Shown here: in pieces, positions 2,042-64,000 of the stretch
Position numbering within the stretch: position 1 is the first letter of the stretch
Layout of the letters: every line of letters begins with the position of its first letter
Assembly (NCBI GenBank): GCA_964384235.1
Contig: CAYLJX010000003.1
Coordinates: 72,389-136,388, forward strand
DNA length: 64,000 nt
Source: an uncultured Bdellovibrionales bacterium
Lineage (GTDB): Bacteria > Patescibacteriota > Minisyncoccia > Moranbacterales > UBA1568
Direction of reading: 5' to 3'
The notes under the pieces: model-generated
Database searches by the model: none
The model's input: only the letters and a program-made list of their open reading frames with translations
What the model was told of the DNA's origin: nothing
Program-made: the position numbers and the translations under genes

Positions 2042-4135
<2,094 letters not shown>

Positions 4136-11960: not shown

Positions 11961-11974
11961 AATTTGAAATCCGT

Positions 11975-15084: not shown

Positions 15085-15095
15085 ATTCGATACTG

Positions 15096-15560: not shown

Positions 15561-15563
15561 ACC

Positions 15564-16016: not shown

Positions 16017-16092
16017 AACGTGGAAGAGTTATTGTTTTATAATCGCATAGCTCCACCAAAGACGATGAAACTATGCAGACAAGAAAACAAAT

Positions 16093-16347
16093 TTAGCGAT
16101 TCAATTTCTTCTTGATGTCGCGGAGCGCCTCATCATCGAACTTGCCCATCTTCTTCAGACGGTCGATTTCCTTGCGGATCTTCACTTTGTAGAGGGCTTC
16201 GGAGCGACGCTTGTCACGGCTCTGTTCTTCGGCACGGAAACGCAGTTTGCGGACGCGCTTCAAGACGCCGCTCTGCTGCACGCGGCGCGAAAAACGCCGA
16301 ATGAGACTTTCAGCGGTTTCCCGTTCCTTTCGTTTTACCTGGATCAT
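16093..16347 (-). CDS. rpsU: 30S ribosomal protein S21
   Basis: MIQVKRKERETAESLIRRFSRRVQQSGVLKRVRK..; AAAGGAGG Shine-Dalgarno upstream. Confidence 0.9.
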   Translation of the reverse strand: MIQVKRKERETAESLIRRFSRRVQQSGVLKRVRKLRFRAEEQSRDKRRSEALYKVKIRKEIDRLKKMGKFDDEALRDIKKKLNR

Positions 16348-16441
16348 AGAAAAACCTCCTTTCTCAAGCTAGCTTGTAGCTTCTTAGCTTTTAGCTTTCA
16401 AGAAAACCAAGAGCAAAGAAACCGCAAACGTAAAACTTCTA

Positions 16442-16795
16442 TCAATTAATGGGATGAATATTCTCCGAGAGTCTCGCCCCACCGATGAGATGTAGGTGGA
16501 GATGTGGAATCTCCTGCCCGCCATCTCTTCCGACCCGAAATAAGAGCTTATACCCTTTTTCGGAAATTTTCAAGTCCCGGGCGATATCGCGGGCCACGAG
16601 GAACATCTTCCCGACGATCCGCTCATCCCCGTCCGCCATCTCGGCGATCGAGACGATCAGCTTTTTCGGAACGATGAGAACATGGACCGGAGCGATCGGA
16701 TGGATGTCATGGAACGCCATCAGCTCGTCATCCTCGTAAAGGAATTCCTTCGGAATCTCACGGTCACGGATTTTTTCGAAGACGGTCTTTTCCAT
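16442..16795 (-). CDS. HIT-family (histidine triad) hydrolase
   Basis: C-terminal HLHLHLIGG histidine-triad motif. Confidence 0.85.
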   Translation of the reverse strand: MEKTVFEKIRDREIPKEFLYEDDELMAFHDIHPIAPVHVLIVPKKLIVSIAEMADGDERIVGKMFLVARDIARDLKISEKGYKLLFRVGRDGGQEIPHLHLHLIGGARLSENIHPIN

Positions 16796-16804
16796 ACATG
16801 ATCG

Positions 16805-18295: not shown

Positions 18296-18313
18296 ACGAT
18301 CTCATGAAAAGTA

Positions 18314-19018
18314 TTAATAAATCGAGAACCGACCGACCGGCCACGCCCGCAGCAATACTCGTCCGATAATCTTGTCCTCCTTGATCGGACCGATGGCCCG
18401 CGAGTCATAGCTGAACATCCGGTTGTCTCCCATCATGAAGTATTCGTTCTCTCCCAGCTTCATCTTCGGCATATCCTGAGTCAGGATATTCGGAGAGAGA
18501 TAGGCACTCTCATCGAGCACGAAACCGTCCGGATGGATATCGTTCGTGATGATCACCTTGCCGCGCCGGATCTCCACCGTCTCACCGGGAAGCCCGATGA
18601 CGCGCTTGATGAAATACTGCTCCGGATTCTTGGGATAGTGGAACACGGCGACCTCCTGGCGTCCGATAGTCTTGAACGGCTTGACGACGAACCCCCTGGT
18701 ATCGCCGAGTGACACGTCCGTCTGCTTGTAACCGAACTCGCTGATCACCAGGTATTCGCCGTCCTCGAAGTTCGGCTCCATGCTCGATCCCTGGACAAAA
18801 AACGGCTGGAACAAAAAGACCCGAACCGGTATAATGATGACTACGGCCAAGAGAAAAACCTTGACCATCTCCATGAGCAGACCTCCGATGCCCAGATAGG
18901 CCGGCTCCTCCTCAGGCTGCGAGAAATTGTGCGGGTACTCTCCCATATTTTCCCTCCATATTACGCTAAAAACAGGCAAAAACACTTGCATTGTAACAGA
19001 TTTTTGATGCCAAAGCAA
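18314..19018 (-). CDS. lepB: Signal peptidase I
   Basis: TM anchor followed by GSSMEPNFEDGEYLVISEF (catalytic Ser box) and a GDNR..SYDSR box. Confidence 0.85.
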   Translation of the reverse strand: MLWHQKSVTMQVFLPVFSVIWRENMGEYPHNFSQPEEEPAYLGIGGLLMEMVKVFLLAVVIIIPVRVFLFQPFFVQGSSMEPNFEDGEYLVISEFGYKQTDVSLGDTRGFVVKPFKTIGRQEVAVFHYPKNPEQYFIKRVIGLPGETVEIRRGKVIITNDIHPDGFVLDESAYLSPNILTQDMPKMKLGENEYFMMGDNRMFSYDSRAIGPIKEDKIIGRVLLRAWPVGRFSIY

Positions 19019-19058
19019 GGGTGTCCTCCGCCTGAAAAAACCTTCTTTCTCGCCTCAT

Positions 19059-20672
19059 ATGGACAGCCTCCGCAGAATCCCACCCCAAAGAGCCCAGCGA
19101 GGCAAAGAAAAGCCGAAACCGAGACGTTTCGCTCTTCCTCCGAAGGAATCATTGCCGTATCCTCCTGAGATTCCCGCTCCGAAATCCGAACCCTCGAAAC
19201 GGTCCGTGTCCCGCTTTTTCCGGGTCGCATTTTTGTCCCTGTTTTTCGCTTTTCTCGGCGTCGCGCTCCTCGCCGGCCTCTTCATCGTCTTCAAAGGGTT
19301 TTCCATCGGAAAAAAGATCTCTGTCGTCAACGACAACGCCCCTTCCCTCCTCTCCCAGATCAAAAGCCTGACGACGACCTGGCTCACCGATACGCGTGTA
19401 CCCCTTCGAGGCGAAGAAGGCGGCCGCATCAACATCCTCCTCCTCGGCCGGGCCGGCGAACACTACCCCGGCAGAAATCTCACCGATACCGTCATGGTGA
19501 TGAGCATCGACACCGAGACCAAGAAGGTCGCGCTTCTCTCATTGCCGCGCGACCTCTACGTGCCCATCGCCGACACCGCCCTCTACACCAAACTGAACTC
19601 CGTCTACCAGTACGGCCTCGGCAACCAGGACGGACCGGAGACGATCCGTGGCACCATCGAGGAAGTGACCGGGCTTCCGCTTCACTACTTCGCCATCCTC
19701 GATTTCGACGGTTTCGAACAGGCGGTCGATGCCATCGGCGGCATCTCAGTGGACGTCGTACGCGATTTCTACGATCCACGCTACCCGGGCAAGAACTACA
19801 GCTACGAGACCTTTGAGATCAAGAAGGGCTGGCAGGAGCTCGATGGCAAGACAGCACTCAAATATGTGCGCGAACGTCACAACGATCCGGAGGGAGACTT
19901 CGGCCGTGCCAAACGCCAGCAGCAGGTGATCCAGGCCATCAAGGAAAAAGCGTTCTCGACCGGGACATTCCTCAACGTCTTCGCCCTCAACCGGCTCCTC
20001 GACACGCTTGGTGAAAACGTCATGACCGACATGACGCTCGACGAAATGCAAAGTTTCCTCGAACTGACGAAAACGCTCGATACCCGGAATGTCACCTCGT
20101 TCGTCGTCGATGCCTGGAAACGTGACAGTCTGCTCCGTGTCTCGCACCTGGAGCTTGGCGGCGTACGTGCCTTCATCCTCGTACCGCGCACCGGCAACTG
20201 GAGCGAGATCCATGACGTCGCGCAAAGTATCTTCTCGCTCGACGAGCTGAAGAAACGCCGCGAACGGATCGCTTCCGAAGAGCCTTCTCTCCTGGTCCTG
20301 GCGAGCCCCGACGCCCTCGCCGCCGCACAGAAATTCGCCCGCCTCGCCAAGGACGAGAGGGGTTTCCAAGAGACCGCCGTACGGACAGTGAAAGCGTTGG
20401 CTGAAACGCCGGAAAAGAGTATCATAAGAGACGACACAGGTCTCGGGAAGCCCTACAGTCTCGATGAGCTCCTGAAAAAGTTTCCTCTGGAGAAAAGCGA
20501 TACGCTCCCCTACGATGTTCCCGCCGGTATCCATCCCGATTTCGTCGTCGTCTTCGGCCAAGACCTCCGGGACGCTCTCGACTTCGATGAGACGGCCTCC
20601 GACGAGACGGTCCTCCAAAACGACAACGATTTCTCCGAACCCCTGACTCCGCAGGAAAAGAAGAAGCGTTAA
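19059..20672 (+). CDS. LytR/CpsA/Psr (LCP) family cell-envelope phosphotransferase
   Basis: N-terminal TM anchor, then INILLLGRAGEHYPGRNLTDTVMVMSIDTETKKVALLSLPRDLYVPI and ALKYVRERH LCP signatures. Confidence 0.85.
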   Translation: MDSLRRIPPQRAQRGKEKPKPRRFALPPKESLPYPPEIPAPKSEPSKRSVSRFFRVAFLSLFFAFLGVALLAGLFIVFKGFSIGKKISVVNDNAPSLLSQIKSLTTTWLTDTRVPLRGEEGGRINILLLGRAGEHYPGRNLTDTVMVMSIDTETKKVALLSLPRDLYVPIADTALYTKLNSVYQYGLGNQDGPETIRGTIEEVTGLPLHYFAILDFDGFEQAVDAIGGISVDVVRDFYDPRYPGKNYSYETFEIKKGWQELDGKTALKYVRERHNDPEGDFGRAKRQQQVIQAIKEKAFSTGTFLNVFALNRLLDTLGENVMTDMTLDEMQSFLELTKTLDTRNVTSFVVDAWKRDSLLRVSHLELGGVRAFILVPRTGNWSEIHDVAQSIFSLDELKKRRERIASEEPSLLVLASPDALAAAQKFARLAKDERGFQETAVRTVKALAETPEKSIIRDDTGLGKPYSLDELLKKFPLEKSDTLPYDVPAGIHPDFVVVFGQDLRDALDFDETASDETVLQNDNDFSEPLTPQEKKKR

Positions 20673-20870
20673 CCCGTATTCAATCGTTCAGTATCAGAAG
20701 TAATTTTTTTCCGACTCGCCAAACTCGAACGCTCTTTCGGTTCCCAAAAAAGTCCGCCCCCGGTCAACGGCGGAGAAGCCGACTTTTTTGAACCGAAAGG
20801 CCTTCTCGGACAGTGCCGAGTTCGGCGAAAAAATTCTTCTGACACTGAACGTTAACTCCCTCAGTCTCAT

Positions 20871-21425
20871 ATGAAACTCATCATCGGTCTCGGCAATCCC
20901 GGCAAAGAATACGAAACCACCCGACACAACGCGGGGTTCTTGGCATTGGATTTTCTAGGAAAGGAATGGGGTTTCAACGATTTCCGCGAGGAAAAGAACT
21001 TTCAAAGCGAGATAGCGACTGGAACACGAGACGGGGAGAAGATCCTCCTCGTGAAGCCTCTCGTCTTCATGAACCATTCCGGCGAGGCCGTACAGAAGAT
21101 CCTCGCCTACTACAAGCTCACCCCCGCCGACATCGCCATCCTCCACGACGATCTCGACATCGCGCCGGGCGAGATCCGTCTCACTGATTCGTCGCGCGCT
21201 GCCGGACACAACGGCGTCCAGGACATCATCGACCGCCTCGGCACACAGGACTTCTTCCGCATCCGCATCGGCATCGGCCGGCCGACAGAGACACTCGGCG
21301 CCTGCATACCATCACATGATTACGTCCTCCAGAAATTCTCTTCGGAAGAACTGAACAACCTTGAGAAACTCTTTCCAAGAATACAAGACGAGATTCTTCG
21401 ATGGCTTGGAAAGTCAGATACGTAG
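20871..21425 (+). CDS. pth: Peptidyl-tRNA hydrolase
   Basis: MKLIIGLGNPGKEYETTRHNAGF...HNGVQDI. Confidence 0.9.
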   Translation: MKLIIGLGNPGKEYETTRHNAGFLALDFLGKEWGFNDFREEKNFQSEIATGTRDGEKILLVKPLVFMNHSGEAVQKILAYYKLTPADIAILHDDLDIAPGEIRLTDSSRAAGHNGVQDIIDRLGTQDFFRIRIGIGRPTETLGACIPSHDYVLQKFSSEELNNLEKLFPRIQDEILRWLGKSDT

Positions 21426-47863: not shown

Positions 47864-47985
47864 GGATGTTGGTTTTTCCTCTGTAAAAAATTATACCACG
47901 TCTCCTCTGTTCCGCAATCTTGCAATCATCTTATTTCCCGTGCTATCAAACAACTCAGGAGGCTTATCTTTTTTTCCAGGTTGAC

Positions 47986-49887
47986 ATGAAACGCCTCCTC
48001 CTCGTGATACTTTTTGACAGTCTCTTTCTTCCTCTTCCGGTTCTGGCGGACACCGTCCCTACCATCATCATAAGCGAGGTCCAGACGAGCGGTGCGTCGA
48101 GCGATGACGAATTCATCGAGCTCTACAATCCCGGGAGCAGCACGGTGAATCTCAGCGACTACGCCCTCCGTCGCAAAACCAAGGGTGACACGAGCGCCCT
48201 GGGCACCTCCGTCAAATCCTTTTCCTCAAGCGATACCATCGGGGCGAAGGAGTATTTCCTCTGGGCCAATTCCAAGAGCGTCTTCAAGGACTTGGCCGAC
48301 GCGACGACCACGGCGAGCCTCACCGATGACAACAGTCTCGCTCTCGTAGGCAAGAATAACGTGATAGTCGACACGGTCACGTACGGCTCGGGACACGCCG
48401 CGCCGTTCTCCCCGACCGTCTCGTCCAATCCTGACAAGAAACAGTCGCTCGTCCGCGACCTTGATACGCTCGAGTGGCAAAAATCCTCGGCACCGACCCC
48501 GACAAACGGTCTCGGCGTGACGTACGAGGAACCGACCCCTTCGACTCCTTCGACGGGCTCAGGGCAAGCAGGCTCAGGGCAAGTAGGCTCGGGATCTTCG
48601 ACTCCTACCACTTCTTCGGCCGTCCGTCTCAACGAACTTCTCCCCAACCCCAAGGAGAAAGGCGAGAAAAACGAGTACATCGAACTCTACAATAGCGGGA
48701 GCGACGAAGTCTCACTCGCCAACTGGACCCTCCGTGACGCATCCAAGACCGGCAAGTACGTTTTTCCCTCAACGTCATCCATCGCCGGCCACGGCTACCT
48801 CGTCATCACGCGCGAGACGTCCGGCCTCTCGCTCAACAATTCCGACGAGACTGTTTCCCTCTTCGATGCGAGCGGCACCCTCGTCTCTTCCGTCCGCTAC
48901 GACAAGACCAAGGAAAACATCTCGCTCAATTACTCCGAAAAAGGATGGCGCGGGAGCAAGTTCCTCACGCCCGGCGCGGAGAACATCCTAAATTCTCTCC
49001 CCGACACCAAGGAGCGCATCCCCAAGAAAGGCTATGCCAAGATGCCCGTGGAATTCCACGCCAAAGGCAAGGACAAAGACGGCGACAAACTCAAGTACAC
49101 CTGGGACTTCGGCGACGGACACAAGAGTTACAAACGAGACACCGCCCATACCTACAAGAAGAAAGGCAAGTACACGATCCGTCTCACCGTGACCGACGGT
49201 TCGGAGGACACTGTCGAGACCAAGAAGATCAAGATCGAGAAATACGAATATCCCGATCTCAAGATCACGACCCTCTCACCGAACCCCGCCGGAAGCGACA
49301 CGGAAAACGAGTGGATCGTCATCGAAAACAAAGGCAAGAAAAAAGTGAATCTCAAGGATTTCGCCATCGCGACCGGCTGGAAATCCCTCGCGAACCACCC
49401 TATCCGAAGCGACCTGGTCATCAAGCCAGGGAAAACCCTCAAGCTTTCACGGAAAGACGCGCTCTTCACCCTTCCCAACAAGCAGGGCAAGATAGAACTC
49501 CGTGCCCCCGACGGTAAGACACTCCAGAAGGTCAAGTACCAACTCGCCGCGTCCGTGAAAGAGAATACCGTCTATCACAAGGAAAAGAATCTTCCGTGGG
49601 CCTGGAAACAGGTTGAGAATGTTTCCTCTCCTCAAAATGCTCCCTCCCTCACGGCGAAGAAAGAAACTTCATCCCCCGCTCCAGAAAAAAAAGAAGAGGC
49701 TCAGCAAACAAAGAAAGAAGAGGTTCAACCGGAAACCTCTCCGACAGAACAACCTTCTATCCCTCCGACTGAAACAGCACCGACCCTTCCCATCGAACAG
49801 GAACAACCTTCTTCCTTTACTCACATTCTGGAAACAATTTTCTCATCTCTAAACGGACTCTTAAACAGACTGTTCGGTGTTCAGTAA
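47986..49887 (+). CDS. Secreted multidomain protein: three lamin-tail domains (LTD), a PKD domain and a C-terminal low-complexity tail
   Basis: Signal peptide MKRLLLVILFDSLFLPLPVLA; repeated ISEV..DEFIELYN / NEYIELYN / NEWIVIEN LTD signatures; WDFGDGHKSY..YTIRLTVTDG PKD motif. Confidence 0.8.
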   Translation: MKRLLLVILFDSLFLPLPVLADTVPTIIISEVQTSGASSDDEFIELYNPGSSTVNLSDYALRRKTKGDTSALGTSVKSFSSSDTIGAKEYFLWANSKSVFKDLADATTTASLTDDNSLALVGKNNVIVDTVTYGSGHAAPFSPTVSSNPDKKQSLVRDLDTLEWQKSSAPTPTNGLGVTYEEPTPSTPSTGSGQAGSGQVGSGSSTPTTSSAVRLNELLPNPKEKGEKNEYIELYNSGSDEVSLANWTLRDASKTGKYVFPSTSSIAGHGYLVITRETSGLSLNNSDETVSLFDASGTLVSSVRYDKTKENISLNYSEKGWRGSKFLTPGAENILNSLPDTKERIPKKGYAKMPVEFHAKGKDKDGDKLKYTWDFGDGHKSYKRDTAHTYKKKGKYTIRLTVTDGSEDTVETKKIKIEKYEYPDLKITTLSPNPAGSDTENEWIVIENKGKKKVNLKDFAIATGWKSLANHPIRSDLVIKPGKTLKLSRKDALFTLPNKQGKIELRAPDGKTLQKVKYQLAASVKENTVYHKEKNLPWAWKQVENVSSPQNAPSLTAKKETSSPAPEKKEEAQQTKKEEVQPETSPTEQPSIPPTETAPTLPIEQEQPSSFTHILETIFSSLNGLLNRLFGVQ

Positions 49888-50836: not shown

Positions 50837-51238
50837 TCATAGCACCTCTCCGTCAAAGTGATACTTGATATGTTTCGCTCCGATGTCCGCGGCGAACTCC
50901 CGGATTTTCGTACGAAGCTTCTCGTAGGCTTCGGCGGGTACCGATCTCCCCACCTTCACCTGAAGCTCGTCAAAAACAGGCAACCAGACCGCGAAGAGCT
51001 CATCGGACTCGAAGTACGGCAAAGGAACGAACCACAGAAACTTCTTTTCCTCGGCCACGAACCAGTGCTCGCCCTCCGGATCCTCTGGATCACCGTTTCT
51101 CCAATATTCCGCCGTGAGCCTCCTCTTGAAATACGAACCAAGGATCTCGGCGACAGCCCGATTGAAACGGGCAAGTGTTTGATACATTTCTACTGCCCCG
51201 CCTTCGGGATCGGAAACCTGAATACTGGACATGACCAC
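50837..51238 (-). CDS. Hypothetical protein (133 aa), first gene of the accessory island
   Basis: Protein-like ORF with its own strong terminator. Confidence 0.5.
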   Translation of the reverse strand: MVMSSIQVSDPEGGAVEMYQTLARFNRAVAEILGSYFKRRLTAEYWRNGDPEDPEGEHWFVAEEKKFLWFVPLPYFESDELFAVWLPVFDELQVKVGRSVPAEAYEKLRTKIREFAADIGAKHIKYHFDGEVL

Positions 51239-51451
51239 CTCCTCACTCTTTTGTTGAAAAAACTTCCCCCATCCCCTGACGCTGCAGAAGACTCTCCATC
51301 CTATACCAGAAACGCTTTTTTGTCACGTCATAACAACAAAAGACCTGAAAAACCAGGTCTTTTCTTTAGAGCTCTTTCAGCCACCACGTTCGCACCTGGT
51401 TCGAATCCCGCGATCCCGAATTCATGGAGGTCATTCGCCAGATCCGGACGA

Positions 51452-51640
51452 TCAAAGCCATGGTGGAGGAGGCGGCTCATAGGGAGGCTCTCCCGGTTTC
51501 GGCGCTTTGTGAGACAAGAGCCAGAAGAGGTTCAGGAGCTCGAGGTACCGGCCCTTCGCCTCGGCGAAAGAAAGCACTTCGTCATAGTCCGCTTCCATTC
51601 TCGCACGGAAGCGGTCGATTGTCTCATCGGTGATCTGCAT
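51452..51640 (-). CDS. Small hypothetical protein (62 aa) with a Pro-rich tail
   Basis: Helical composition; no Shine-Dalgarno sequence seen. Confidence 0.25.
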   Translation of the reverse strand: MQITDETIDRFRARMEADYDEVLSFAEAKGRYLELLNLFWLLSHKAPKPGEPPYEPPPPPWL

Positions 51641-51830
51641 GCAACCAGAGTGCCATGCGCTGCAAACTCAGTCATGACGGGGGAATGTGCCAAGTCCGCA
51701 CACTCAGTAACCGGTGGTCCATAACGCCCTCGCAGCACCCTACATAAAGAGCGATTGGGCGGTCCGTACCGAACCAAACGTCGAACTTTCTAGGCGTGAG
51801 CCAGCGAAACTGGCCTGAGGCACTCATTCG

Positions 51831-52610
51831 TCAAGTCTTGGGGTATTCCGCATTGCACTCTTGCCGCAGGCGAGCACGTTCCGTGTCTTGGACCGGCCGC
51901 TCAATAGTGCTTCGAAGCGTCGCACGCATCCATGCACCCGGACCGAAGAGCTGTGATGGACTGGAACAGGAAATCGGAAGGCGCACACCTCGTACGACGC
52001 CGTCCTCGGCTATGAACTGGAGATCGCCAAGCTGGCCACGGCTTTCTTCTACGTTAAGAACCTCCGGTCGACCAACTATGACATAGCCGGGAGGAGCATC
52101 AAAAGCCACCACGTCTGATTGCGAGTGCCCCCCTCCACCTACGCCTGCTCCCTCGCATCTCACTTGGTTTCGAACCTCTTGTGTCTTGCGATCTTGAAAA
52201 CGAGCTACGGAGCCAGCAAGGCACTCTGCGATCTTGGCGTTTCGGTGTTCAGCAGCGTGCTGAGCCTCTTTTGCAGCGTCGAAGACTGCGTAGCCAAGGA
52301 CACATACGCCACCGAAGATGAGCACGAAGGCACCCATCTTCACGCCCCAGTGCTCTTTGCCAAAGAAGAGCCATGCCAGGAGACCGACTATGCATGCCAG
52401 CAGTGCCAAGACCCCAAGGGGTGTTTTGATCGCTGCTTCGAAGACTCTCGGGAACTGCTCAACAAGTGTTTGCAACATCCATTCCTCCCGATATCGAACT
52501 CGATCGATGACGTTCTGGTGCGCATCGCGAAATGTTTCCAATCGTGGCAATGTGCCGCCTAGGCGCGACTCGCTTCCCACGACAGAGCGCATAGCCAGCG
52601 ATTGCGACAC
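51831..52610 (-). CDS. Hypothetical 2-TM membrane protein downstream of SGNH-like paralog 1
   Basis: ..LGVLALLACIVGLLAWLFFGKEHWGVKMGAFVLIFGGVCVLGYAVF.. TM hairpin. Confidence 0.4.
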   Translation of the reverse strand: MSQSLAMRSVVGSESRLGGTLPRLETFRDAHQNVIDRVRYREEWMLQTLVEQFPRVFEAAIKTPLGVLALLACIVGLLAWLFFGKEHWGVKMGAFVLIFGGVCVLGYAVFDAAKEAQHAAEHRNAKIAECLAGSVARFQDRKTQEVRNQVRCEGAGVGGGGHSQSDVVAFDAPPGYVIVGRPEVLNVEESRGQLGDLQFIAEDGVVRGVRLPISCSSPSQLFGPGAWMRATLRSTIERPVQDTERARLRQECNAEYPKT

Positions 52611-52679: not shown

Positions 52680-53489
52680 TCACACTGCGATCGCGAGTTC
52701 CTTCAAGGTGTCGATCCAGCGTTCATTCACGATCCGCTGGAATCCCTCTCTCGTTGGGTGGAGCTCGTTGTCCCAGTCTTCGAGGTAGTTCGGGGAAACA
52801 AGACATCCGCGTGAATTGACCAAGTAGATTCGTTTGCCCGGATCCGCAAACTGCGAAAACTCCTCGGCGAGGCGGTCGATGAGGATGCGACAGATCTTCC
52901 GGCGGAGATCGGGGTCGTTCGGAACCTGTCGTTCGTCCATGGCCGGAGCGAGCCACGGCCCCGTTATCTTCAACGTCTCAAGTTTGAAGCCCCGTCCATC
53001 CGGGATGGGATAGTCGTAGGAGTGGAGGATGACGGCCGGGTGAAGCCCCTGTTTTCCGGCGGCACGCCAGACTTGATGGGTCATGGCGCCAAGGGCGGTA
53101 CCCAGTCGTCCCATCAGGGCATCCATCGCCGCCTCCTCGATACAGTCTTCCGGCGTTTGCGCTTTGGAGCAATTCCTTTTCAGCCCAAGCCCGTAATCGA
53201 CCGCATCGTTTCCTGCACCACCGATTCGGACAAACGAATAGTAGGGCATGTTCTCTGGTCGCAGTTCCCAAGCGAACTGTTTCGCGTACCTGCCGAAGAC
53301 GTACTCCTCCAGCTTGGCGCCGATGTACCCGAGCGACTGGATCTGACGATACGGATCCTGGACGCGCGGATGGGTCGCAATCGCGTAGAGGAGGTTGCTC
53401 TTCGGATACCAGAACCAGGAGTCTCCGATTGCCAGAAGTGCGGGAAATTCGCCGGGAAGCCACTGCTCGCCGGGCGCATAGATTTTCAT
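52680..53489 (-). CDS. GDSW-motif SGNH-hydrolase-like protein, paralog 1
   Basis: LLAIGDSWFWY (block I Ser), GGAGND (block III), WDNELHP (block V His); paralogous to 62572..63420. Confidence 0.65.
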   Translation of the reverse strand: MKIYAPGEQWLPGEFPALLAIGDSWFWYPKSNLLYAIATHPRVQDPYRQIQSLGYIGAKLEEYVFGRYAKQFAWELRPENMPYYSFVRIGGAGNDAVDYGLGLKRNCSKAQTPEDCIEEAAMDALMGRLGTALGAMTHQVWRAAGKQGLHPAVILHSYDYPIPDGRGFKLETLKITGPWLAPAMDERQVPNDPDLRRKICRILIDRLAEEFSQFADPGKRIYLVNSRGCLVSPNYLEDWDNELHPTREGFQRIVNERWIDTLKELAIAV

Positions 53490-53664: not shown

Positions 53665-55068
53665 TCACTTTGAAGTCAATCCCGCTTCCGTCATGAACTT
53701 GACGATCCGGGCCGCTGTGAGTGCTTCGTTGTAACCAAGCCTATCCTGAAACCGATTGAAGCCTTGGACGTGAATGCCGATAACCGCCCCGTCTGATAGA
53801 TCAAAAATTGGGCTGCCCGAGTTTCCGCCAGACGTGTTGGCCTTGTGCACGAACATTCCCTCATCAGTGACCTTTTTTCCCCCAGTAAAGCCACCTGAGA
53901 GCCGCTTGAACGGAAACTGGGGCGCCAACTTGTCGGGTGTTCTGAAGAACTCCACTTGTTCCGCAACGGTCATATCGTCGGGAGGTCCCGGATAGCCCAT
54001 GACCGCCACAATCATGTTCCCGGCGTATGCAGCATTAGGTCTTTCCGCAAGCGTGAGGCTTTTCGGAAACTGCTGATCGGTCGAAGTAAGGAGTATGGCC
54101 ATGTCATCTCGAGAACCTTTAGGCACTGCGTGGACTGCATTCAGAAAATATGAACGCTCCTTGTTGGGCTCCTCGCAAGCATTGTCCTTACCCAATGGGT
54201 ACTCGACGTCAAAATAGACCTTCGCTCCAGGGCGAATCTTCCAAAGATTCTTCTGTTCATCATACTGAGCAATACTTTTGAGCACGTGTAGGTTTGTAAT
54301 CAGATGATTCGATCCCACGACGAAGCCTGATCCTGCTGGACGATCGTCAAGCATTATCAGACCTACGCTTCTCCCGGCCCGAACGAGTGCGTCTTTATGA
54401 GATGAAATTGTCTTACTCCACTCCAATGGGTCTTTGGGCGCCCAGAGTTGCTCCTTGCAGACAAGGAAATAGGGATTTGAGAGCGCTGCAAACGACTCAG
54501 CAACAGCCGGCGATATTCCCTTAATCTGACCCAAAACAAATTCTCGTGCCCGTTGCTTCGTTGAAATTGCCGTGTTGATAGCGGAGAGCGCCACATTGTT
54601 GGCTGGCGTCTTCGGCTCGACGGCGTTAAGCTGCGCCAGCTCTACCTGCAACTGATCGATCTCCGATTCGATTACAGCGAGTAGCGCTTGTCTCTGCGCG
54701 GGACTTTGTTGTTCCAGCGATTCTTCCAAAGACTGAGGCGTCACGGTCCCGGAACGCGATGCCGGTGTCTTCGACAGATCACCGTTGGAACCAACGAGTG
54801 GTGCGCCAGGCAGCTTTCGAGGAATCGACTGGCTGACTAGTCGAAGTTCCACATCGCTTATTTCGCGGGCACGACTAACGGATTCCACGGTGGCGCGCCT
54901 GAGGGCGTCGCCTAAGAGGTCGCCAAAGAGATCTCCCGCTTGGACGCTCGACGTTCCTAAGGCAATCGAGCACAGTAGCAGTAGACCTTTCTCAAACCTA
55001 GGACGATTGATGTTGCGATTCATTTCGGTGGCCGGCGCGCAGCTAGTTTGTTCGTACCCGTTTTTCAT
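53665..55068 (-). CDS. Secreted trypsin-like (S1, chymotrypsin-fold) serine protease with an N-terminal coiled-coil region
   Basis: Signal peptide; ..GSGFVVGSNHLITNLHV.. (His), ..DMAILL.. (Asp), ..GNSGSPIFD.. (Ser). Confidence 0.8.
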   Translation of the reverse strand: MKNGYEQTSCAPATEMNRNINRPRFEKGLLLLCSIALGTSSVQAGDLFGDLLGDALRRATVESVSRAREISDVELRLVSQSIPRKLPGAPLVGSNGDLSKTPASRSGTVTPQSLEESLEQQSPAQRQALLAVIESEIDQLQVELAQLNAVEPKTPANNVALSAINTAISTKQRAREFVLGQIKGISPAVAESFAALSNPYFLVCKEQLWAPKDPLEWSKTISSHKDALVRAGRSVGLIMLDDRPAGSGFVVGSNHLITNLHVLKSIAQYDEQKNLWKIRPGAKVYFDVEYPLGKDNACEEPNKERSYFLNAVHAVPKGSRDDMAILLTSTDQQFPKSLTLAERPNAAYAGNMIVAVMGYPGPPDDMTVAEQVEFFRTPDKLAPQFPFKRLSGGFTGGKKVTDEGMFVHKANTSGGNSGSPIFDLSDGAVIGIHVQGFNRFQDRLGYNEALTAARIVKFMTEAGLTSK

Positions 55069-56607: not shown

Positions 56608-57174
56608 TCACACCATCCCTCGCTCCGCCAGACTCACCACGTCCGTCCCCGCCACCACGAAGTGATCGAGGACCTTCACATCGACAAGTCCAAGCGCCTG
56701 CTTCAAGGCACTCGTCAGCAGCTCATCCGCCCGGCTCGGTTCGGAAACGCCAGAAGGATGGTTGTGGGCGAAGATGAGAGCGGCAGCGTTGTGCCGGAGG
56801 GCCCGCTTGACGATCTCCCTTGGATACACCGACGTCTGGCTCAAGGTGCCTCGGAAGAGTTCTTCCGAAGCGATGAGGCGGTTCTGGGCATCCAAGAAGA
56901 GCGTGAGGAACGACTCGTACTCCTGAGCAACGAAATATGCCAGGAGGTAGCGCTTCACGTGCTCCGGCGAGGTGAGGAGGATCTCCTCTCGCCGCAGGTC
57001 TTCGTAGAGGAGCCGCGTGACCAACTCCTTGGCGACCTGAAGTCGCCGCTGTGCGCTCGTCCTCGCTTCGCCCGCAAAGAGCGGCACGAGACTTCCCTGA
57101 TACAACTTCTCTGCCGCCTTCGCCCCTATGAGCCTCTCCAGCAACTCGCGGTCGCTGGCCTTCTGCATGTCCAT
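56608..57174 (-). CDS. radC: RadC-like JAB-domain protein
   Basis: N-terminal helix-hairpin-helix-like region and C-terminal ..[16 protein letters not shown].. JAMM motif. Confidence 0.85.
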
Positions 57175-57311
57175 GGCAATGGTCTCCTTCTAGAGTAAAG
57201 AACCAATTCCATCGTCATGCATGCGGCATCTCTCGCGTAGGCTTGGAAACGTGCCAAGCTGACACGTTCTCCCGTCTCCGCCCAGGAGCGTCTCTCCCCT
57301 ACCGTGGGAAG

Positions 57312-58505
57312 ATGGACTTCTCTCACGATATCGCGCTCTTCGCCCGGACCAATGCCAGGCGAAGCTTCCAGCCCTTCGGCCTCCGTCAGGCCGACCGCCT
57401 GTTTCACCTGTATGCCATAGGGAAGACGGGAACGGGCAAGTCGACCCTCCTCGAGACGCTCGCCCTTCAGGACATGCGCGCGGGCCGCGGATTGGCCGTC
57501 ATCGATCCCCATGGCGACTTGGTGCTACGCCTCAAGAAGGCGATGCCGCCCTCGCGCCGAGACGATCTGCTTTTCTTCGACGTCCCGGATGTCTCCCAAG
57601 CCTTCGGCTACAACCCGCTGCGCAAGGTGCGGCCCGACAAGATTCCCCTGGCCGCCTCGGGACTCCTGGAGGCCTTCAAGAAGCTCTGGACGGATGCCTG
57701 GGGCGTACGCATGGAGCATGTCCTGCGCAATGCTCTCTTCGCGCTCCTCGAATACGGAGAGGCGACCCTTCCGGACATCCTTCGCCTCATGACGGACAAC
57801 GCCTTCCGATACCGCGTGTCAGCGACGCTCACCAACGAACAGGTGAAGGCCTTCTGGCAGAACGAGTTCCCCAAGTACCACCCTCGCTACCGCCAGGAGA
57901 GCATCGCTCCCATCCAGAACAAGGTCGGCGCCTTCCTGGCCGATCCCAGGCTCTACCGGATCTTCACGGCTCCTCCCGTCGATCTGCGTTTCCGCAGAGT
58001 CATGGACGAGGGGAAGATCCTCCTCGTCAATCTCTCCAAGGGACAACTCGGCGAAGACAGCGCCTCGCTCCTCGGGGCTCTCCTCGTCACGACGCTCTCC
58101 TTGGCGGCCTTCTCCCGGGCGGATATGCCGGAAGCGGAGCGGAAGCCTTTCTTCATCTTCGTCGACGAATTTCAGTCGTTCACGACCCTTTCGGTGGCCG
58201 GGATGATCTCGGAATTGCGTAAGTACAACGTGGGGCTCGTCCTCGCCAACCAGCACCTCCACCAGCTCGAGCCCGATGTCCGGCACGCGGTCCTGGGGAA
58301 CGTGGGAACGCTCGTCGTCTTCCGGGTCGGCCCTGAGGATGCCCGCTTCCTCGCCCATGAGTTCGAGGGAAGCTTCTCGCCCTTCGACCTCATGAGCCTC
58401 GCCAACCATGACATCTACCTTCGCCTCATAATCGACGGGACTCCCAGCCCGCCCTTCAGCGCGACCACCATCAAGCCAGATGATCTTGATCGCTTGAGGA
58501 TGTGA
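57312..58505 (+). CDS. TrwB/TraD (type IV coupling protein)-like P-loop ATPase of the FtsK-HerA superfamily, soluble form
   Basis: Walker A YAIGKTGTGKSTLLETL followed by VIDPHGD (compare TrwB GATGTGKSVLL...VIVDPNGD); Walker B FFIFVDEFQSF; ..VGLVLANQHLHQL.. sensor; no N-terminal TMs. Confidence 0.75.
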   Translation: MDFSHDIALFARTNARRSFQPFGLRQADRLFHLYAIGKTGTGKSTLLETLALQDMRAGRGLAVIDPHGDLVLRLKKAMPPSRRDDLLFFDVPDVSQAFGYNPLRKVRPDKIPLAASGLLEAFKKLWTDAWGVRMEHVLRNALFALLEYGEATLPDILRLMTDNAFRYRVSATLTNEQVKAFWQNEFPKYHPRYRQESIAPIQNKVGAFLADPRLYRIFTAPPVDLRFRRVMDEGKILLVNLSKGQLGEDSASLLGALLVTTLSLAAFSRADMPEAERKPFFIFVDEFQSFTTLSVAGMISELRKYNVGLVLANQHLHQLEPDVRHAVLGNVGTLVVFRVGPEDARFLAHEFEGSFSPFDLMSLANHDIYLRLIIDGTPSPPFSATTIKPDDLDRLRM

Positions 58506-59079: not shown

Positions 59080-62000
59080 ATGTCCGGCCTCTCGCCTGCG
59101 GAAATCATCACCACGAGCTTCTATGCGTGGGAGGTACGCGGGCGCGGGTGGCAGGTAGCGGACTATCCCGTCTGCCTTGAGCCGCCGTTTCGGCATTGCT
59201 TCGTCCTGCCCGATCTCGTCGCGGAAACGAAGCCGATCGATGACGGAAAACGGCCGACGTTCCTCAGTTCCGTGGTCGAGGGCCTGCGGAGCGCCTTCGC
59301 GCTCGACGCCACCCCTGCGCCCGAGCCCGCCCCACCGTACGAGGAACCAGCCCCCTATCCGGCACTTGCGTCCGGACCGCTCACCGCGTTTTGCGTGACG
59401 GTGCCGATGGATCACAAGAGCCATCCGGAAACGACAATCCGCCTTCTCGTCGCGCTGTCGACCTGCTGCTTCCCCGTGTCCCTCGAACTCATCGGCTGCG
59501 AAGGCCAGGTCATCATCCAACTGGTCTGCGCCGACACCGACCAGGCGCATGTGGCCGCGCAGTGCCTCGCCTACCTTCCCGACGCTGCGGTCATCGAAAC
59601 CGAGGACCTCCTTGCGAGCGTCTGGGATCGACGGCGGGAGCACGCCGTCGTCGATTTCGGGCTCTCTCAGGAATTCTTTCTGCCGTTTGATGGACTGAAG
59701 AGCCAGAAGCTCGACCCGTACCTCTCCCTTGTTCCCTCCCTCGCCAGGGCGGATCGAGACGAGGCGATCCTCCTACAGGTCCTCTTCCAAGGCGTCCAGA
59801 ATCCGTGGGGCAAGGCTATCCGCGACGCCCTCGATGATGGCCAGGGCGGTTCTGTGTTCGCGGACGCCCCAGCATTTCCCCGGCTGGCCGATGAGAAGCT
59901 GAAGACCTCCCTCTTTGCCGTCTCGGTCCGTGTCGCCGCACAGGCACAGGAGGCGGAACGAGCGTGGCACTTGGCCCGTTCGACCGGCGCCTTTTTCCTC
60001 CAATTGGGCCGACCCGGAGCCAATGAACTCCTCCCGCTTGAGAACGACGGCTACCGAGAGGATCTTCATGTCGAAGCCATCCTCACGCGGCAGTCGTACC
60101 GCCTTGGGATGATCCTCTCGGCCGACGAGTTGGCGGCGCTCGCCCATCTTCCCGATGCCGCGGTCCGTCATCCGTCCCTCACGCGGGAGGAGCGGCGGAC
60201 GAAGCCTCTTCCCGTCGAAGCCTCCGGACATCCCCATGTCCTCGGCGAAAACCAGCACCGCGGGAAGATGTCCGTCGCGTCGCTCAGTGATGGGCAGCGG
60301 CTCCAGCACACCTGGATAGTCGGCGCCTCCGGGACGGGAAAGTCGACGCTTCTCCTGAACCTCATCACTGAGGACATTCGGCTCGGTCATGGTGTCGCGG
60401 TGCTGGATCCGCACGGCGACCTGATCGACGACATCTTGGCGCGGGTGCCAGACAGCCGCACGAGCGATGTCATCGTCTTCGACCCGAGCGATACTGAGTG
60501 GCCCATCGGATTCAATATCTTCTCAGCCGGAAGCGAGGGCGAGCGGGCGCTCTTGGCTGCCGATCTCGTCGGGATCTTCCGGCGGTTCTCGACATCTTGG
60601 GGCGACACCATGAGCGCGGTGCTCGGGAACGCGGTCCTCGCGATCCTCGAGCACCCGCAGGGTGGGACGCTGCTCGACCTCAGGCGGCTCCTCGTCGATG
60701 AGCGCTTCCGCCGCGCGTACCTGGAGGACGTGGCGGACGAGGAGGTCGCCTTCTTCTGGTCGCGCGAGTACCCCGTGATCGGCTCACGTTCGATCGGCCC
60801 GATCCTGACCCGGCTTGACACCTTCCTGCGGCCCAAGGTCATTCGGCATATCGTCGGACAGCCGGATGGGAAGCTCCATTTCTCCGACGTCATGGCGTCG
60901 AAGCGCATCTTTCTCGCGAAGCTCTCCCATGGCCTCATCGGCGAGGAGAATGCCTACCTCCTCGGCAGCCTCATCGTGGGAAAGTTTCTCGGACTCGCGC
61001 TCGCGCGGCAGCAGCTCGCGAAGGATGAACGCGCCGCCTTCTTCCTGTATGCCGACGAGTTTCAGCACTTCCTCACGCCCTCCATGGAAACGCTGCTCAC
61101 GGCGGCGCGAAAGTACGCGCTTGGGGCAACGCTCGCCCATCAGACGATGGCGCAGCTCCGGGACTCGCCCAAGGTGGAAGGCGCGCTTCTCGGCAACGCC
61201 TACACGCGCATCGTCTTCCGAACCGGGGAAAGCGATGCGCGGCAGCTGGCCGAGGGGTTTTCCTTCTTTGAGGGGCGCGACATCCACGGTCTGGGACGGG
61301 GCGAGGCGATCGCCCGGCTCGGATCGAGCGGAAATGACTTCAACCTGAAAACGCTGCCGCTCCCCGGCGTGCCGCCTGGGGCGGAGGAGCGGCGCTCCCA
61401 GATCATCTTCCGCTCGCGCGAGCGCTACGGGACGCCGATCGAAGCGCTGCGGGCGCTCCTCGGGGCACGGTACAGAGCAAGCGAGGAACCGGCCGAAGCG
61501 AAGCCGAGGCCGCCGCTCGAGGAGGCACCGCCCGCGCTCTCGGGTGCGGGAGAGCCGATCGCCGCTTCCTGTGAGACACCACGGGCAAGCGTTCCGGAAC
61601 CAAAGACCGGTGAGCAACTGATGGCGCGCCGGGTACCGATCAATGTCGCAGCGGTCACCCCGGGACGGGGCGGGCAGGAGCACAAATACCTCCAGCACCT
61701 CGTGAAACGCTTGGCCGAAGAGCGCGGTTTCCGCGCCACGATTGAAGAGGCCGCGGGAGATGGCCGGGCAGACGTGGTACTGAGCAAGAGTACGCAGCGA
61801 ATCGCCTGCGAGATCTCAGTGACGACGGACCATATCCACGAGGAAGAGAACTTGAGGAAGTGCCTCGCGGCCGGATTCGAACAGATCGTCTTTGTCGTAC
61901 CCGACCGGAAACGAAGGGAGAAACTGAAAGGACATTTTCAGGAGATTGCCGGAATCGACTCGTTGGCGGTGATATCGACGGAGGAGATCGTCGCGTACCT

Positions 62001-62160
62001 CGACGGGCTGGATACCGGATCGGCCGTGGCCGAATCGACCGTGCGAGGCTACAAGGTGAAAGTCACGCGGCAGACGGTCTCGCCAGAGGAGCTGGCCGGA
62101 AGGCGCTCGGCCATCGCCGAGGTGATCGCCCGGTCGCTCCTCAAACACAAGGACGTTTGA
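59080..62160 (+). CDS. Large TrwB/HerA-like ATPase fused to an unknown N-terminal domain and a C-terminal Hjc/restriction-endonuclease-like (PD-(D/E)xK fold) domain
   Basis: Walker A WIVGASGTGKSTLLLNL..VLDPHGD, Walker B FFLYADEFQHF, paralogous to 57312..58505; the C-terminus ..LVKRLAEERGFRATIE..GDGRADVVL..RIACEISVT resembles the Hjc ..KGFAVVR..PDIIA..IEVKS pattern. Confidence 0.75.
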   Translation: MSGLSPAEIITTSFYAWEVRGRGWQVADYPVCLEPPFRHCFVLPDLVAETKPIDDGKRPTFLSSVVEGLRSAFALDATPAPEPAPPYEEPAPYPALASGPLTAFCVTVPMDHKSHPETTIRLLVALSTCCFPVSLELIGCEGQVIIQLVCADTDQAHVAAQCLAYLPDAAVIETEDLLASVWDRRREHAVVDFGLSQEFFLPFDGLKSQKLDPYLSLVPSLARADRDEAILLQVLFQGVQNPWGKAIRDALDDGQGGSVFADAPAFPRLADEKLKTSLFAVSVRVAAQAQEAERAWHLARSTGAFFLQLGRPGANELLPLENDGYREDLHVEAILTRQSYRLGMILSADELAALAHLPDAAVRHPSLTREERRTKPLPVEASGHPHVLGENQHRGKMSVASLSDGQRLQHTWIVGASGTGKSTLLLNLITEDIRLGHGVAVLDPHGDLIDDILARVPDSRTSDVIVFDPSDTEWPIGFNIFSAGSEGERALLAADLVGIFRRFSTSWGDTMSAVLGNAVLAILEHPQGGTLLDLRRLLVDERFRRAYLEDVADEEVAFFWSREYPVIGSRSIGPILTRLDTFLRPKVIRHIVGQPDGKLHFSDVMASKRIFLAKLSHGLIGEENAYLLGSLIVGKFLGLALARQQLAKDERAAFFLYADEFQHFLTPSMETLLTAARKYALGATLAHQTMAQLRDSPKVEGALLGNAYTRIVFRTGESDARQLAEGFSFFEGRDIHGLGRGEAIARLGSSGNDFNLKTLPLPGVPPGAEERRSQIIFRSRERYGTPIEALRALLGARYRASEEPAEAKPRPPLEEAPPALSGAGEPIAASCETPRASVPEPKTGEQLMARRVPINVAAVTPGRGGQEHKYLQHLVKRLAEERGFRATIEEAAGDGRADVVLSKSTQRIACEISVTTDHIHEEENLRKCLAAGFEQIVFVVPDRKRREKLKGHFQEIAGIDSLAVISTEEIVAYLDGLDTGSAVAESTVRGYKVKVTRQTVSPEELAGRRSAIAEVIARSLLKHKDV

Positions 62161-62571
62161 TAGCGACTCGCGGATCGGACGGCTGGCAAAGAAGTTTCAT
62201 TGAAGATCCTTTCTCTCGCATTGACGGGCACTGCGTCTTTGGCAGGACGGGCAGTGGCCAATGTCTTGGCCGCCATTGCCGCTCAGATCCATCAAGCAGA
62301 ACGGCACAGTCCCGCCTCGAGGAGCTATGTGCGTGATCTTTCGGTACTACAACGAAGGATCCGTTACCTCCACGTTGGCGCCGCTTGCTGCCAGCACTGC
62401 CCAAGAAGCGTGAATCCCATGGCAGGCGACAACGGTCCGTCAAGTTCGAAAGCATTTTTTATAGACCACGATCGTTTCCTGTTCAATAGATCGAATGCCA
62501 GATACCACAAGGCATGCGAGAGCCATATGCTGTTCGTCCAACAGCCTCGGCGTTCATTGGAAGGTCCGCCC

Positions 62572-63420
62572 ATGCCGCAAGCCATCGTCCTTACGCCGTC
62601 GCAACTGGAAAATCCCGACCTCGGGCAACCGCATCGGTGGGAGTTCTTCGACCGACATTACCTGGCCGAAGGAGATTCGTGGTTCACTTTGGCAGCGCTC
62701 CCCGGCGGAAACCTTCTCCAGGAGCTGCATCTACAGCGATCGTCACTGGTTATCAATACCGCCTCCCCGGGAGACACGCTCTCCCATATCGTCGAATGGC
62801 GCCAAAACCGCCCGTTTGTAAAGCTACTGTCCGAACGCAAGTTTGCACAAAAATGGGATGGGGTGCTCCTGAGCGCGGGCGGCAATGACCTCATTGATGC
62901 CGCAATTTCTCGAGACGGCATCCTCCGCCGTCCGAGCCCGACGGCAACCACCGCAGGTGAGTGCATTCACGATGAGAATCTTGAATTATTGAAACGCCAT
63001 CTGTCGTTCCATCTTGAACAGATCATAGAACTCCGCGACGCTCGGAAGAGCCCCAACCAGGGCATACCGGTCTTTCTCCACACGTACGACTATCCCACTG
63101 CGAGGCCGGCGCCCGCGAAGCTCGTTGGCGTGGTAGGCGTTTCCGGACCGTGGCTGCATCGCGCGTACACAGAACACCATATCCCCGATGCATTATGGTC
63201 ACCTTTGACAGAGCATCTGATCGACTGGCTGGCCAGATTGCTTCAGGAACTGAAGCTTCCAAATGTAACCGTTATCGATACGAGAGGGACACTCGAGCGA
63301 GCTGCTGCGGGAACAACTGGAGACAGCGGTGACTGGCTCAACGAGATCCATGCGAATCAAGGCGGCCGGAAGAAGCTTGCGAAACGGTGGGCGCAGGACT
63401 TGCATCGCATTGTCGGATAG
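62572..63420 (+). CDS. GDSW-motif SGNH-hydrolase-like protein, paralog 2
   Basis: YLAEGDSWFT, SAGGNDL, HTYDYP, GPWL, WLNEIHAN, parallel to paralog 1; start taken at MPQAIV with a GGAAGG Shine-Dalgarno. Confidence 0.65.
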   Translation: MPQAIVLTPSQLENPDLGQPHRWEFFDRHYLAEGDSWFTLAALPGGNLLQELHLQRSSLVINTASPGDTLSHIVEWRQNRPFVKLLSERKFAQKWDGVLLSAGGNDLIDAAISRDGILRRPSPTATTAGECIHDENLELLKRHLSFHLEQIIELRDARKSPNQGIPVFLHTYDYPTARPAPAKLVGVVGVSGPWLHRAYTEHHIPDALWSPLTEHLIDWLARLLQELKLPNVTVIDTRGTLERAAAGTTGDSGDWLNEIHANQGGRKKLAKRWAQDLHRIVG

Positions 63421-63462
63421 AAGCAGCCTTTCGGGGCGAATCGACACGCGTGCGATTAGAGG

Positions 63463-63945
63463 TTGGAAGAGGAAGTCGATATGACAGAAGACGATCACAA
63501 ACGCGAGCGTGAATCGTTTGCGGCCATCATCGAGAGTCTTGAGAAATCAGTGAGGGCACACCGTACAGGCATAGATGGCTGGCTGTACAACGGCGGGACC
63601 GTCGTTACCCTGGTCTTGATGGCGACCGTCTCGATTCTGTCCGGGAAAATCTTCCCGACGGACACGTTTGCAGAATGGATGGCACCAATGCTTTCGGCGA
63701 CGGCGGGCCTGGTCGTCGCGCTCGAACGGTCATTGGGATTTGGGCAACGTTGGCGGTTTCACACCGAGATGAAAGCAGGCTATGTCACTGTGATTGACAT
63801 GATCCAGTTCTACTTTGCGCTTCCTCAGGATGAGCTAGAACAACGTGCCAAGCTCCGTGTGGAAATTTGGCAGTCATTGAACGCATTGCGCAGTCGTGAA
63901 TCGGCTATACCCAACTCCGGTGGAGCCGTATCCGGTGGAGCCTGA
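63463..63945 (+). CDS. Small 2-TM protein with SLATT/DUF4231-like architecture
   Basis: N-terminal helix, TM hairpin (VVTLVLMATVSILSG / MLSATAGLVVALE), then ..FGQRWRFHTEMKAGY.. helix typical of SLATT effectors; inference only. Confidence 0.4.
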   Translation: MEEEVDMTEDDHKRERESFAAIIESLEKSVRAHRTGIDGWLYNGGTVVTLVLMATVSILSGKIFPTDTFAEWMAPMLSATAGLVVALERSLGFGQRWRFHTEMKAGYVTVIDMIQFYFALPQDELEQRAKLRVEIWQSLNALRSRESAIPNSGGAVSGGA

Positions 63946-64000
63946 TCTCTTGACCCAGAACAACGCACCTCAAAGCGGTTCGTGGAACTGCATGCGTTGG

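Follow-up and report, generated by a model that had tools for sequence, protein, structure and literature searches.

At the 3' end of the window analysed here, a stretch of 64,000 nucleotides (nt) from contig CAYLJX010000003.1 of an uncultured Bdellovibrionales bacterium (assembly GCA_964384235.1), two genes lie on a common strand: gene A, encoding a putative esterase of the SGNH/GDSL fold, and gene B, encoding a small protein with two transmembrane (TM) helices and distant similarity to the SLATT superfamily. The first-pass annotation had joined them as 'module 2' of a conflict island. We instead favour, at a probability of about 0.6, the interpretation that genes A and B, though adjacent in the cargo of an integrative mobile element, are accessory genes unrelated to each other and do not form a dedicated two-gene system; their adjacency inside that element is probably due to chance. 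The two-gene module is not favoured because SGNH genes and gene B never occurred together outside one element. For gene B itself, the reading we favour is a self-contained, membrane-acting defence or abortive-infection protein.

62572..63420, + strand: gene A, 282 amino acids (aa), predicted cytoplasmic SGNH/GDSL-fold esterase without signal peptide or TM segment, from the open reading frame (ORF) list
63421..63480: spacer between genes A and B, 60 nt, with a purine-rich GAGGAAG that ends 7 nt before the ATG and without a terminator-like or attC-like site
63481..63945, + strand: gene B, 154 aa, SLATT-superfamily-like, two TM helices; 160 aa if translation began at the TTG at 63463 instead

Both genes are real and not chance ORFs, each having a conserved family. 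The reading frame of gene A can be extended upstream to a TTG at 62200, and the ATG at 62572 chosen in the first-pass annotation is retained because it fits the lengths of the homologs (280-288 aa). For gene B, none of the 25 aligned homologs starts upstream of the position of the ATG at 63481, and their lengths are mostly 146-154 aa, so the gene is better read as 63481-63945, with 154 aa and a 60-nt gap; the gene called earlier stands, and the 160 aa and 42-nt gap given for it depend on the TTG at 63463. A promoter and terminator scan found no promoter-like site and no terminator-like hairpin between the two genes, Rfam gave no match across 61900-64000, and PADLOC gave none for either protein.

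Genes A and B are not paired in the other lineages sampled

Gene neighbourhoods were compared in a sample of 39 loci, the first 30 of which were searched by tblastn with both SGNH paralogs of the window and with gene B. Among these 30, only L025-L028 had an SGNH gene beside gene B; these loci match the window at 100% identity and represent its element in other samples. None of the 13 other gene-B lineages had an SGNH neighbour, none of the seven other SGNH-homolog lineages had gene B, and no neighbour of the gene-B homologs was common to any two lineages. The pairing of an SGNH esterase with a SLATT-like protein proposed in the first-pass annotation was therefore confined to a single element.

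The neighbours themselves were diverse. In the Rhodoferax lineage, gene B was accompanied by uncharacterised genes of 70 and 123 aa, the latter encoding four TM segments (L001 8787-10465, L002 6048-7726, L003 and L004); these contigs had a 550-nt non-coding gap before gene B, and in L002 a transposase abutted the trio. On ENA contig L005 (9191-10453), a 64%-identical homolog begins 19 nt past a gene with PG_binding_1 and Peptidase_M15_4 domains, in an island that also encodes a giant DUF7379/LCAT/CHAT/TPR-S protein, a Peptidase_M15_3 protein and a faint patatin match. Elsewhere (L010, L011, L012-L015 and L016-L024) the homologs lay among unrelated small genes.

The SGNH homologs were equally varied in context. 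The closest one with a readable neighbourhood (P0171, 69% identity; L029 1-12813 and L030) lies in a TIR/nSTAND/LD_cluster island that comprises four TIR_2-domain proteins, of which one also carries an FGE-sulfatase domain, one LD_cluster2 and one nSTAND1, plus an AAA_5 ATPase. Others, all without gene B, followed a Peptidase_M48 gene, occupied a conserved Azoarcus-type neighbourhood between a Mg-chelatase-like gene and BMFP/P-II/Amt, adjoined RlmM, adjoined a dienelactone-hydrolase-like gene on the opposite strand, or (P0172) preceded a 228-aa protein whose one hydrophobic segment lies near the N-terminus. The sampled members of the SGNH family thus have no recurring neighbour and often lie among ordinary metabolic genes.

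Gene B relatives circulate as single-gene integron cassettes

In at least five lineages, relatives of gene B are single-gene integron cassettes flanked by attC sites, scored here as a single ORF bounded by imperfect palindromes of the form RYYYAAC ... GTTRRRY (L010, L012, L013/L014, L015, L017, L018, L020, L021, L024 and probably L007). Contig L010 (1-10190) has 16 near-identical attC sites of 111-114 nt (GCCTAAC ... GTTAGGC) between single ORFs, and its gene-B homolog (73% identical, 365-829) sits between attC sites at 207-317 and 824-935. An identical 151-aa protein, P0020, occurs in L012 (6815-7270), L013 (2441-2896), L015 (967-1422) and L020 (917-1369), and the cassettes upstream and downstream of it differ between these metagenome contigs; this gene-B homolog therefore moves as a one-gene unit through cassette shuffling. 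Because the relatives of gene B have no conserved partner and circulate as single-gene cassettes, gene B is expected to act alone or with generic host or phage factors. The gene is an accessory and mobile one, not a housekeeping gene.

Classic cassette arrays were seen in L010 (1-10190), L012 (2528-8609), L013, L015 and L020. Those of L010 consist of single small ORFs, including GFA, SMR and HNH genes, and the L012 array also encodes, on the minus strand at 4835-6091, the reverse transcriptase of a group II intron.

For the window copy, no canonical attC site was found in the 64 kb or in L025. A relaxed attC scan returned 51 matches in the window at background energy density and was too noisy to use; a relaxed candidate at the gene-B stop region (L025 11656-11749) was rejected, its 'CCCAAC' core being conserved Pro-Asn codons. 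Searches with gene B by tblastn gave no match in a plasmid collection or in a phage collection of 50,697 records.

Integron cassettes encode phage-defence systems, often by way of small TM proteins (bioRxiv 10.1101/2024.07.02.601719; bioRxiv 10.64898/2026.03.17.712381); about one-third of 'BRiC' cassettes encode TM helices and some BRiCs are predicted to form pore-like oligomers (bioRxiv 10.1101/2024.07.02.601719). Relatives of gene B are likewise small TM proteins in single-gene cassettes, as are membrane-protein BRiCs such as Deva and BrcWGS21, but the window copy lies outside an integron, and the likeness considered here is that of cassette lifestyle and TM helices.

Gene B belongs to a divergent clade near SLATT_4

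The relation of gene B to SLATT was judged by profile searches (NCBIfam, Pfam, a family profile and hhalign). As a single sequence, gene B matched NCBIfam SLATT_4 at E=1.2e-4 (aa 39-142 against profile positions 32-130 of 154), SLATT_1 at E=0.083 (12.8 bits versus a cut-off of 41) and Pfam DUF4231 at E=0.17, and did not match Pfam SLATT_4; these scores are suggestive but insufficient. The family as a whole gave a more consistent signal. Both SLATT_4 (best 4e-6) and SLATT_1 were matched by 25 of 26 close homologs. An exhaustive profile search among 1.84 billion proteins yielded 138 representatives of a wider family, in which SLATT_4 was matched by 50 of 101 members, SLATT_1 by 48 and DUF4231 by 6, and no family beyond SLATT recurred among the matches of these 101. 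The same search recovered P0160 at E=1.9e-4, a bona fide SLATT_4 protein (67.3 bits versus a curated cut-off of 55), and hhalign aligned the close gene-B family with it at 89% probability (E=2.2e-6, 109 columns). That alignment spans TM1 to the C-terminal tail and reaches beyond the hydrophobic stretches to matching polar motifs, ERxxGFG and E..IP: the TM2 end ALERSLGF of gene B aligns with AIERKFGFG of P0160, and its tail with NEPTIP. A further search, with the SLATT part of P0160 as seed and intended for a SLATT_4 alignment, gave no matches.

From these profile comparisons, we place gene B in the SLATT superfamily, within a small divergent clade of its own that is nearest to SLATT_4 and SLATT_1 and is not SLATT_4 proper. 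The earlier label of a SLATT/DUF4231-like protein with two TM helices thus holds at the level of profiles (25 of 26 close homologs; 89% in hhalign) but not at that of curated cut-offs. The family is rare and patchy, with 27 clusters among 5.8 billion proteins, and far smaller than the SGNH family (1,514 matches). One apparent match, P0092 (1,161 aa), was a translated tandem repeat and was discarded. P0071 (457 aa), a member of the wider family, begins with an intramembrane protease domain of the CPBP/Rce1-like kind, joined to it either by true fusion or by a mis-called gene, and is the sole domain fusion seen in the family.

Comparison with characterized SLATT systems places gene B closest to SLATT_4 (NCBIfam NF033632, Pfam PF18186), the effector with two TM helices found in CBASS-like systems of type I; for a type I CBASS from a lactococcus, PF18186 is the effector listed (PMC11381338). 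SLATT_4 is the best and most consistent profile match of the gene-B family, which shares with it the succession of a cytoplasmic helix, two TM helices and cytoplasmic helices, the ER..GFG motif at the end of TM2 and the E..IP motif near the C-terminus, but gene B scores far below the family cut-off (21.9 versus 55 bits). Unlike these CBASS-like systems, gene B has no adjacent CD-NTase/SMODS or other signal-generating enzyme, and its family moves alone as integron cassettes. Matches to SLATT_1/DUF4231 (PF14015) are weak and recurrent. In contrast to the SLATT_5 effectors of the reverse transcriptase systems UG17/DRT10, gene B has no reverse transcriptase or non-coding RNA partner (the latter from the Rfam search of 61900-64000); DRT10 requires all three of its components (bioRxiv 10.64898/2026.04.29.721553), whereas the gene-B family is without a partner. 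More broadly, no signal-generating or sensor partner (SMODS/CD-NTase, SLOG, TIR, reverse transcriptase or GAP1) was linked or fused to gene B in the window, in L025 or at the other gene-B loci. SLATT proteins have been described as mobile effector or accessory modules (PMC9226505; bioRxiv 10.64898/2026.04.29.721553), highly mobile in one account (PMC9226505) and exchangeable between systems (PMC9226505; PMC7159879).

Predicted topology and conserved motifs of gene B

63568..63642, + strand: TM helix 1, aa 30-54 in the AlphaFold2 (AF2) model (hydropathy segment 35-59), opening with an invariant YNGGT motif
63664..63735, + strand: TM helix 2, aa 62-85 in the AF2 model, ending in ALERSLGF
63739..63783, + strand: juxta-membrane block FGQRWRFHTEMKAGY, predicted cytoplasmic, aa 87-101 in the 154-aa numbering
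63883..63924, + strand: C-terminal tail ALRSRESAIPNSGG, with A135, L136, R137, R139, S141 and P144 invariant in the close family

The AF2 model of gene B (predicted local distance difference test, pLDDT, 93) has five helices (3-26, 30-54, 62-85, 87-113 and 119-140), arranged as an N-terminal helix, TM1, a 7-residue loop, TM2 and two further helices. The helix-TM-short loop-TM-helix layout read earlier is recovered, except that two helices, not one, follow TM2. In TM1, Y36, N37, G39 and T40 are invariant in the close family, and N37 stays conserved in 90% or more of the wider one; in TM2 the same holds for E82 and R83 and for R83, respectively. The segment after TM2, FGQRWRFHTEMKAGY, was rightly singled out in the first-pass annotation: it is the most conserved stretch of the family, with F87, G88, R90, W91, H94, G100 and Y101 invariant among close homologs and R90 and W91, like P144 of the tail, conserved across 90% or more of the wider family. 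Basic residues flank both TM helices on one side, and since they lie on both sides of the hairpin, the positive-inside rule predicts that both termini are cytoplasmic.

Gene A is an ordinary SGNH/GDSL-family member

62671..62685, + strand: block I, GDSWF, aa 34-38, putative nucleophile Ser36; G34, D35, S36, W37 and F38 invariant in 49 aligned homologs
62878..62892, + strand: block III, GGNDL, aa 103-107, putative oxyanion Asn105; G104, N105 and D106 invariant in 49 aligned homologs
63331..63351, + strand: block V region, DWLNEIH, His260; D254, W255, E258 and H260 invariant, N257 in at least 90%
52680..53489, - strand: SGNH paralog 1, 269 aa, 27% identical to gene A by BLASTP (E=3e-16)

By sequence and structural model, gene A is predicted to be a soluble cytoplasmic esterase or acyl-hydrolase of the SGNH fold and an ordinary member of its family, which is large (1,514 matches at E<=0.001) and mainly betaproteobacterial. 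Many of those matches are annotated with PF13472 or PF00657 or named SGNH/GDSL hydrolase. Gene A itself falls below the gathering scores of both Lipase_GDSL_2 (PF13472; E=5.9e-5, 24.1 versus 32.9) and Lipase_GDSL (PF00657; E=2.8e-4, 21.5 versus 23.6). Its AF2 model (pLDDT 91) matched 56 PDB chains in Foldseek at E<=1e-3, with the top ranks almost all GDSL/SGNH esterases or acyltransferases. A hydropathy scan found no hydrophobic segment and no signal peptide in gene A, and a cytoplasmic location is predicted on that basis.

The motifs GDSWF, GGNDL and NEIH (aa 257-260, nt 63340-63351) are all present, as first described. Gene A has the same fold as the esterases EstL5 (8ik1), Geobacillus GDSL esterase (7e16), M. 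smegmatis aryl esterase (2q0q) and TesA, with a best Foldseek E of 6.8e-8, and shares with them blocks I and III and the catalytic His, all invariant among its homologs, but it is some 70-80 residues longer, only 11-16% identical, and has NxxH in block V in place of DxxH. Asn257 occupies the canonical Asp position (-3 of His260) and is Asn family-wide; the invariant Asp254, six residues upstream of His260, may substitute for the canonical Asp. Gene A and the gene at 53489..52680 (- strand) are, on their alignment, true yet distant paralogs, as had been proposed; a further candidate for paralog 1, 50858-51721, is unrelated.

The surrounding mobile element

51831..52610, - strand: protein of 259 aa encoded downstream of paralog 1; two adjacent hydrophobic segments, aa 56-86 and 87-114
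56608-57174, - strand: RadC gene
57243-58505, + strand: TraD/TrwB/HerA-like ATPase, 420 aa
58552-59064, + strand: uncharacterised protein, 170 aa, between the two ATPases
59080-62160, + strand: TraD/TrwB/HerA-like ATPase, 1,026 aa, the two ATPases standing directly upstream of gene A

The window copy of gene B looks like cargo of an integrative mobile element ending in a large serine recombinase. Within the window the element comprises RadC and the two TraD/TrwB-like ATPases, and according to L025 it runs past the window to a 667-aa serine recombinase. The stretch of L025 beyond window position 64000 (11818-20898) encodes a 184-aa lipoprotein-like gene (-), a 222-aa multi-TM gene, an HTH_92 gene, an XRE-type helix-turn-helix gene (-), a 621-aa Metallophos (calcineurin-like phosphoesterase) protein (-) and, at 18895-20898 (-), the recombinase. 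The 259-aa protein, whose fold the first-pass annotation proposed to compare with that of gene B, has no BLASTP similarity to gene B and no NCBIfam SLATT match at E<=1, and by these searches is unrelated to it.

Other features of the region were noted in passing. Both ATPases weakly match PADLOC 'mad8' (1.9e-18 and 3.4e-12), and the C-terminus of the 1,026-aa ATPase resembles a PD-(D/E)xK nuclease by eye only. A 467-aa trypsin-like peptidase (Trypsin_2; 53665-55068, -) adjoins SGNH paralog 1, and its protease part matches PADLOC RT-Protease_XI models at 1.9e-10. The gene at 47920-49887 (+), on the border of the accessory region, codes for a protein of 655 aa that combines one PKD domain with three lamin-tail domains. 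Five copies of CGTTAAC, which contain GTTAAC, lie within about 95 nt at 4161-4253, intergenic between long ORFs ending at 4135 and starting at about 4269-4278; going by their sequence, they could be a set of regulator binding sites.

Discussion

The first-pass annotation combined the SGNH esterase and the SLATT-like protein in one module of a conflict island. Spelled out, this two-gene reading would make the SLATT-like protein a membrane-disrupting effector and the esterase a sensor, a signal-processing enzyme or a co-effector, acting for example on lipids, and the design would be repeated in paralog 1 and the protein downstream of it. The two genes do share a strand with a 60-nt gap and no terminator-like site, paralog 1 is likewise followed by a protein with two TM segments, P0171 in its TIR/nSTAND/LD_cluster island is followed by a 352-aa multi-TM protein, and P0172 by the 228-aa protein with its single hydrophobic segment. 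We nevertheless consider this interpretation unlikely because neither gene was found with the other in the remaining lineages (0 of 13 and 0 of 7), elsewhere gene B forms a cassette of its own, several of the SGNH homologs, at 43-68% identity, lie beside metabolic or housekeeping-looking genes on the opposite strand, and the downstream membrane proteins of the window and L029 differ in length and TM layout, with no similarity between gene B and the 259-aa protein. The proximity of gene B to a hydrolase could also be read as that of a holin-like export or lysis protein, releasing its neighbour across the inner membrane (the SGNH protein here, the peptidoglycan peptidase in L005, where the 64%-identical homolog begins 19 nt past the PG_binding_1 and Peptidase_M15_4 gene). 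The absence of a signal peptide from gene A and the small size, two TM helices and charged ends of gene B, as in class II holins, are compatible with such a role, which we regard as very unlikely: the integron cassettes and other loci have no hydrolase neighbour, the 50,697 phage records gave no tblastn match, the profile similarity is to SLATT and not to holin families, and the gene-B family has a large, confidently folded cytoplasmic helical domain in its models. The holin reading was dropped, as was that of an effector/immunity pair of the type VI secretion system type, gene B having no conserved neighbour.

Somewhat more probable, though on balance still doubtful, is a role for gene B outside conflict, for example in stress, transport or as an envelope accessory protein, with its SLATT similarity reflecting very distant ancestry or composition. 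Every curated cut-off was missed, PADLOC was negative, and integron cassettes carry many non-defence functions (bioRxiv 10.64898/2026.03.17.712381). Arguing for SLATT kinship and a defence role are the similarity to P0160 in polar motifs outside the TM helices, the consistency of the SLATT matches over half or more of the family, its rare and patchy distribution (27 clusters among 5.8 billion proteins) and its occurrence in mobile contexts and in TIR- or CHAT-rich islands. A defence or conflict role for gene B is plausible, and the conflict-system reading of the island given in the first-pass annotation remains plausible though indirect; no enzyme producing a nucleotide signal (CD-NTase, SLOG or reverse transcriptase) lies nearby.

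Several observations count against our preferred interpretation of two unrelated cargo genes, one of them a stand-alone defence protein. To our knowledge, SLATT effectors rely on a partner enzyme, and we know of no citable precedent for a stand-alone one. The neighbourhood sample is small, at about 14 gene-B and about eight SGNH lineages, and genes A and B are probably co-transcribed here because they share a strand, lie 60 nt apart and have no terminator between them. In four island-type contexts, moreover, the SGNH gene is followed by a membrane protein on the same strand: gene B, the 259-aa protein at 52610..51831 (-; two TM segments), a 352-aa protein in L029 (8962-10020; three to four) and a 228-aa protein in L039 (2603-3289; one). 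These differ in length as well as in TM layout, the sampled SGNH homologs in metabolic or housekeeping-looking neighbourhoods have no such downstream membrane protein, and, with eight lineages sampled, the pattern may be due to chance. Gene B also scores far under the curated cut-offs (21.9 versus 55 bits for SLATT_4, 12.8 versus 24.7 for Pfam DUF4231); Foldseek found no match for its model in the PDB at E<=0.001, only generic helical bundles, and the family profile found nothing meaningful among PDB sequences.

If gene B is a self-contained defence protein, it would insert in the inner membrane with both ends cytoplasmic and oligomerise, and its cytoplasmic face, formed by ER..GFG.RWRFH and the ALRSRESAIP tail, would sense a trigger. 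It would then open or perturb the membrane, with abortive infection or arrested growth as the outcome, in line with proposals for other SLATT effectors, or it might instead interfere with phage genome entry. In its most complete form, which we put forward tentatively as a possibility that has the odds against it, the 154-aa protein would be an entire single-gene defence system: a SLATT-type effector without a partner enzyme, whose own helices and tail sense a phage or stress cue, and which has spread through environmental bacteria as a self-contained integron cassette. In a weaker variant of this proposal, cytoplasmic SGNH esterases in defence islands would time and again recruit unrelated membrane proteins as interchangeable partners.

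For the window, we caution against counting 'module 2' as evidence for a two-gene conflict system. What is new is a divergent SLATT-superfamily protein that, unusually, stands alone and is borne on cassettes. It is widely assumed that SLATT proteins are effectors waiting for a partner enzyme, for example a CD-NTase, reverse transcriptase or TIR protein, to give the signal. How they are activated is an open question (bioRxiv 10.64898/2026.04.29.721553). A clade that consistently lacks a partner and travels as one-gene cassettes would offer a minimal system for what the SLATT domain senses and does by itself.

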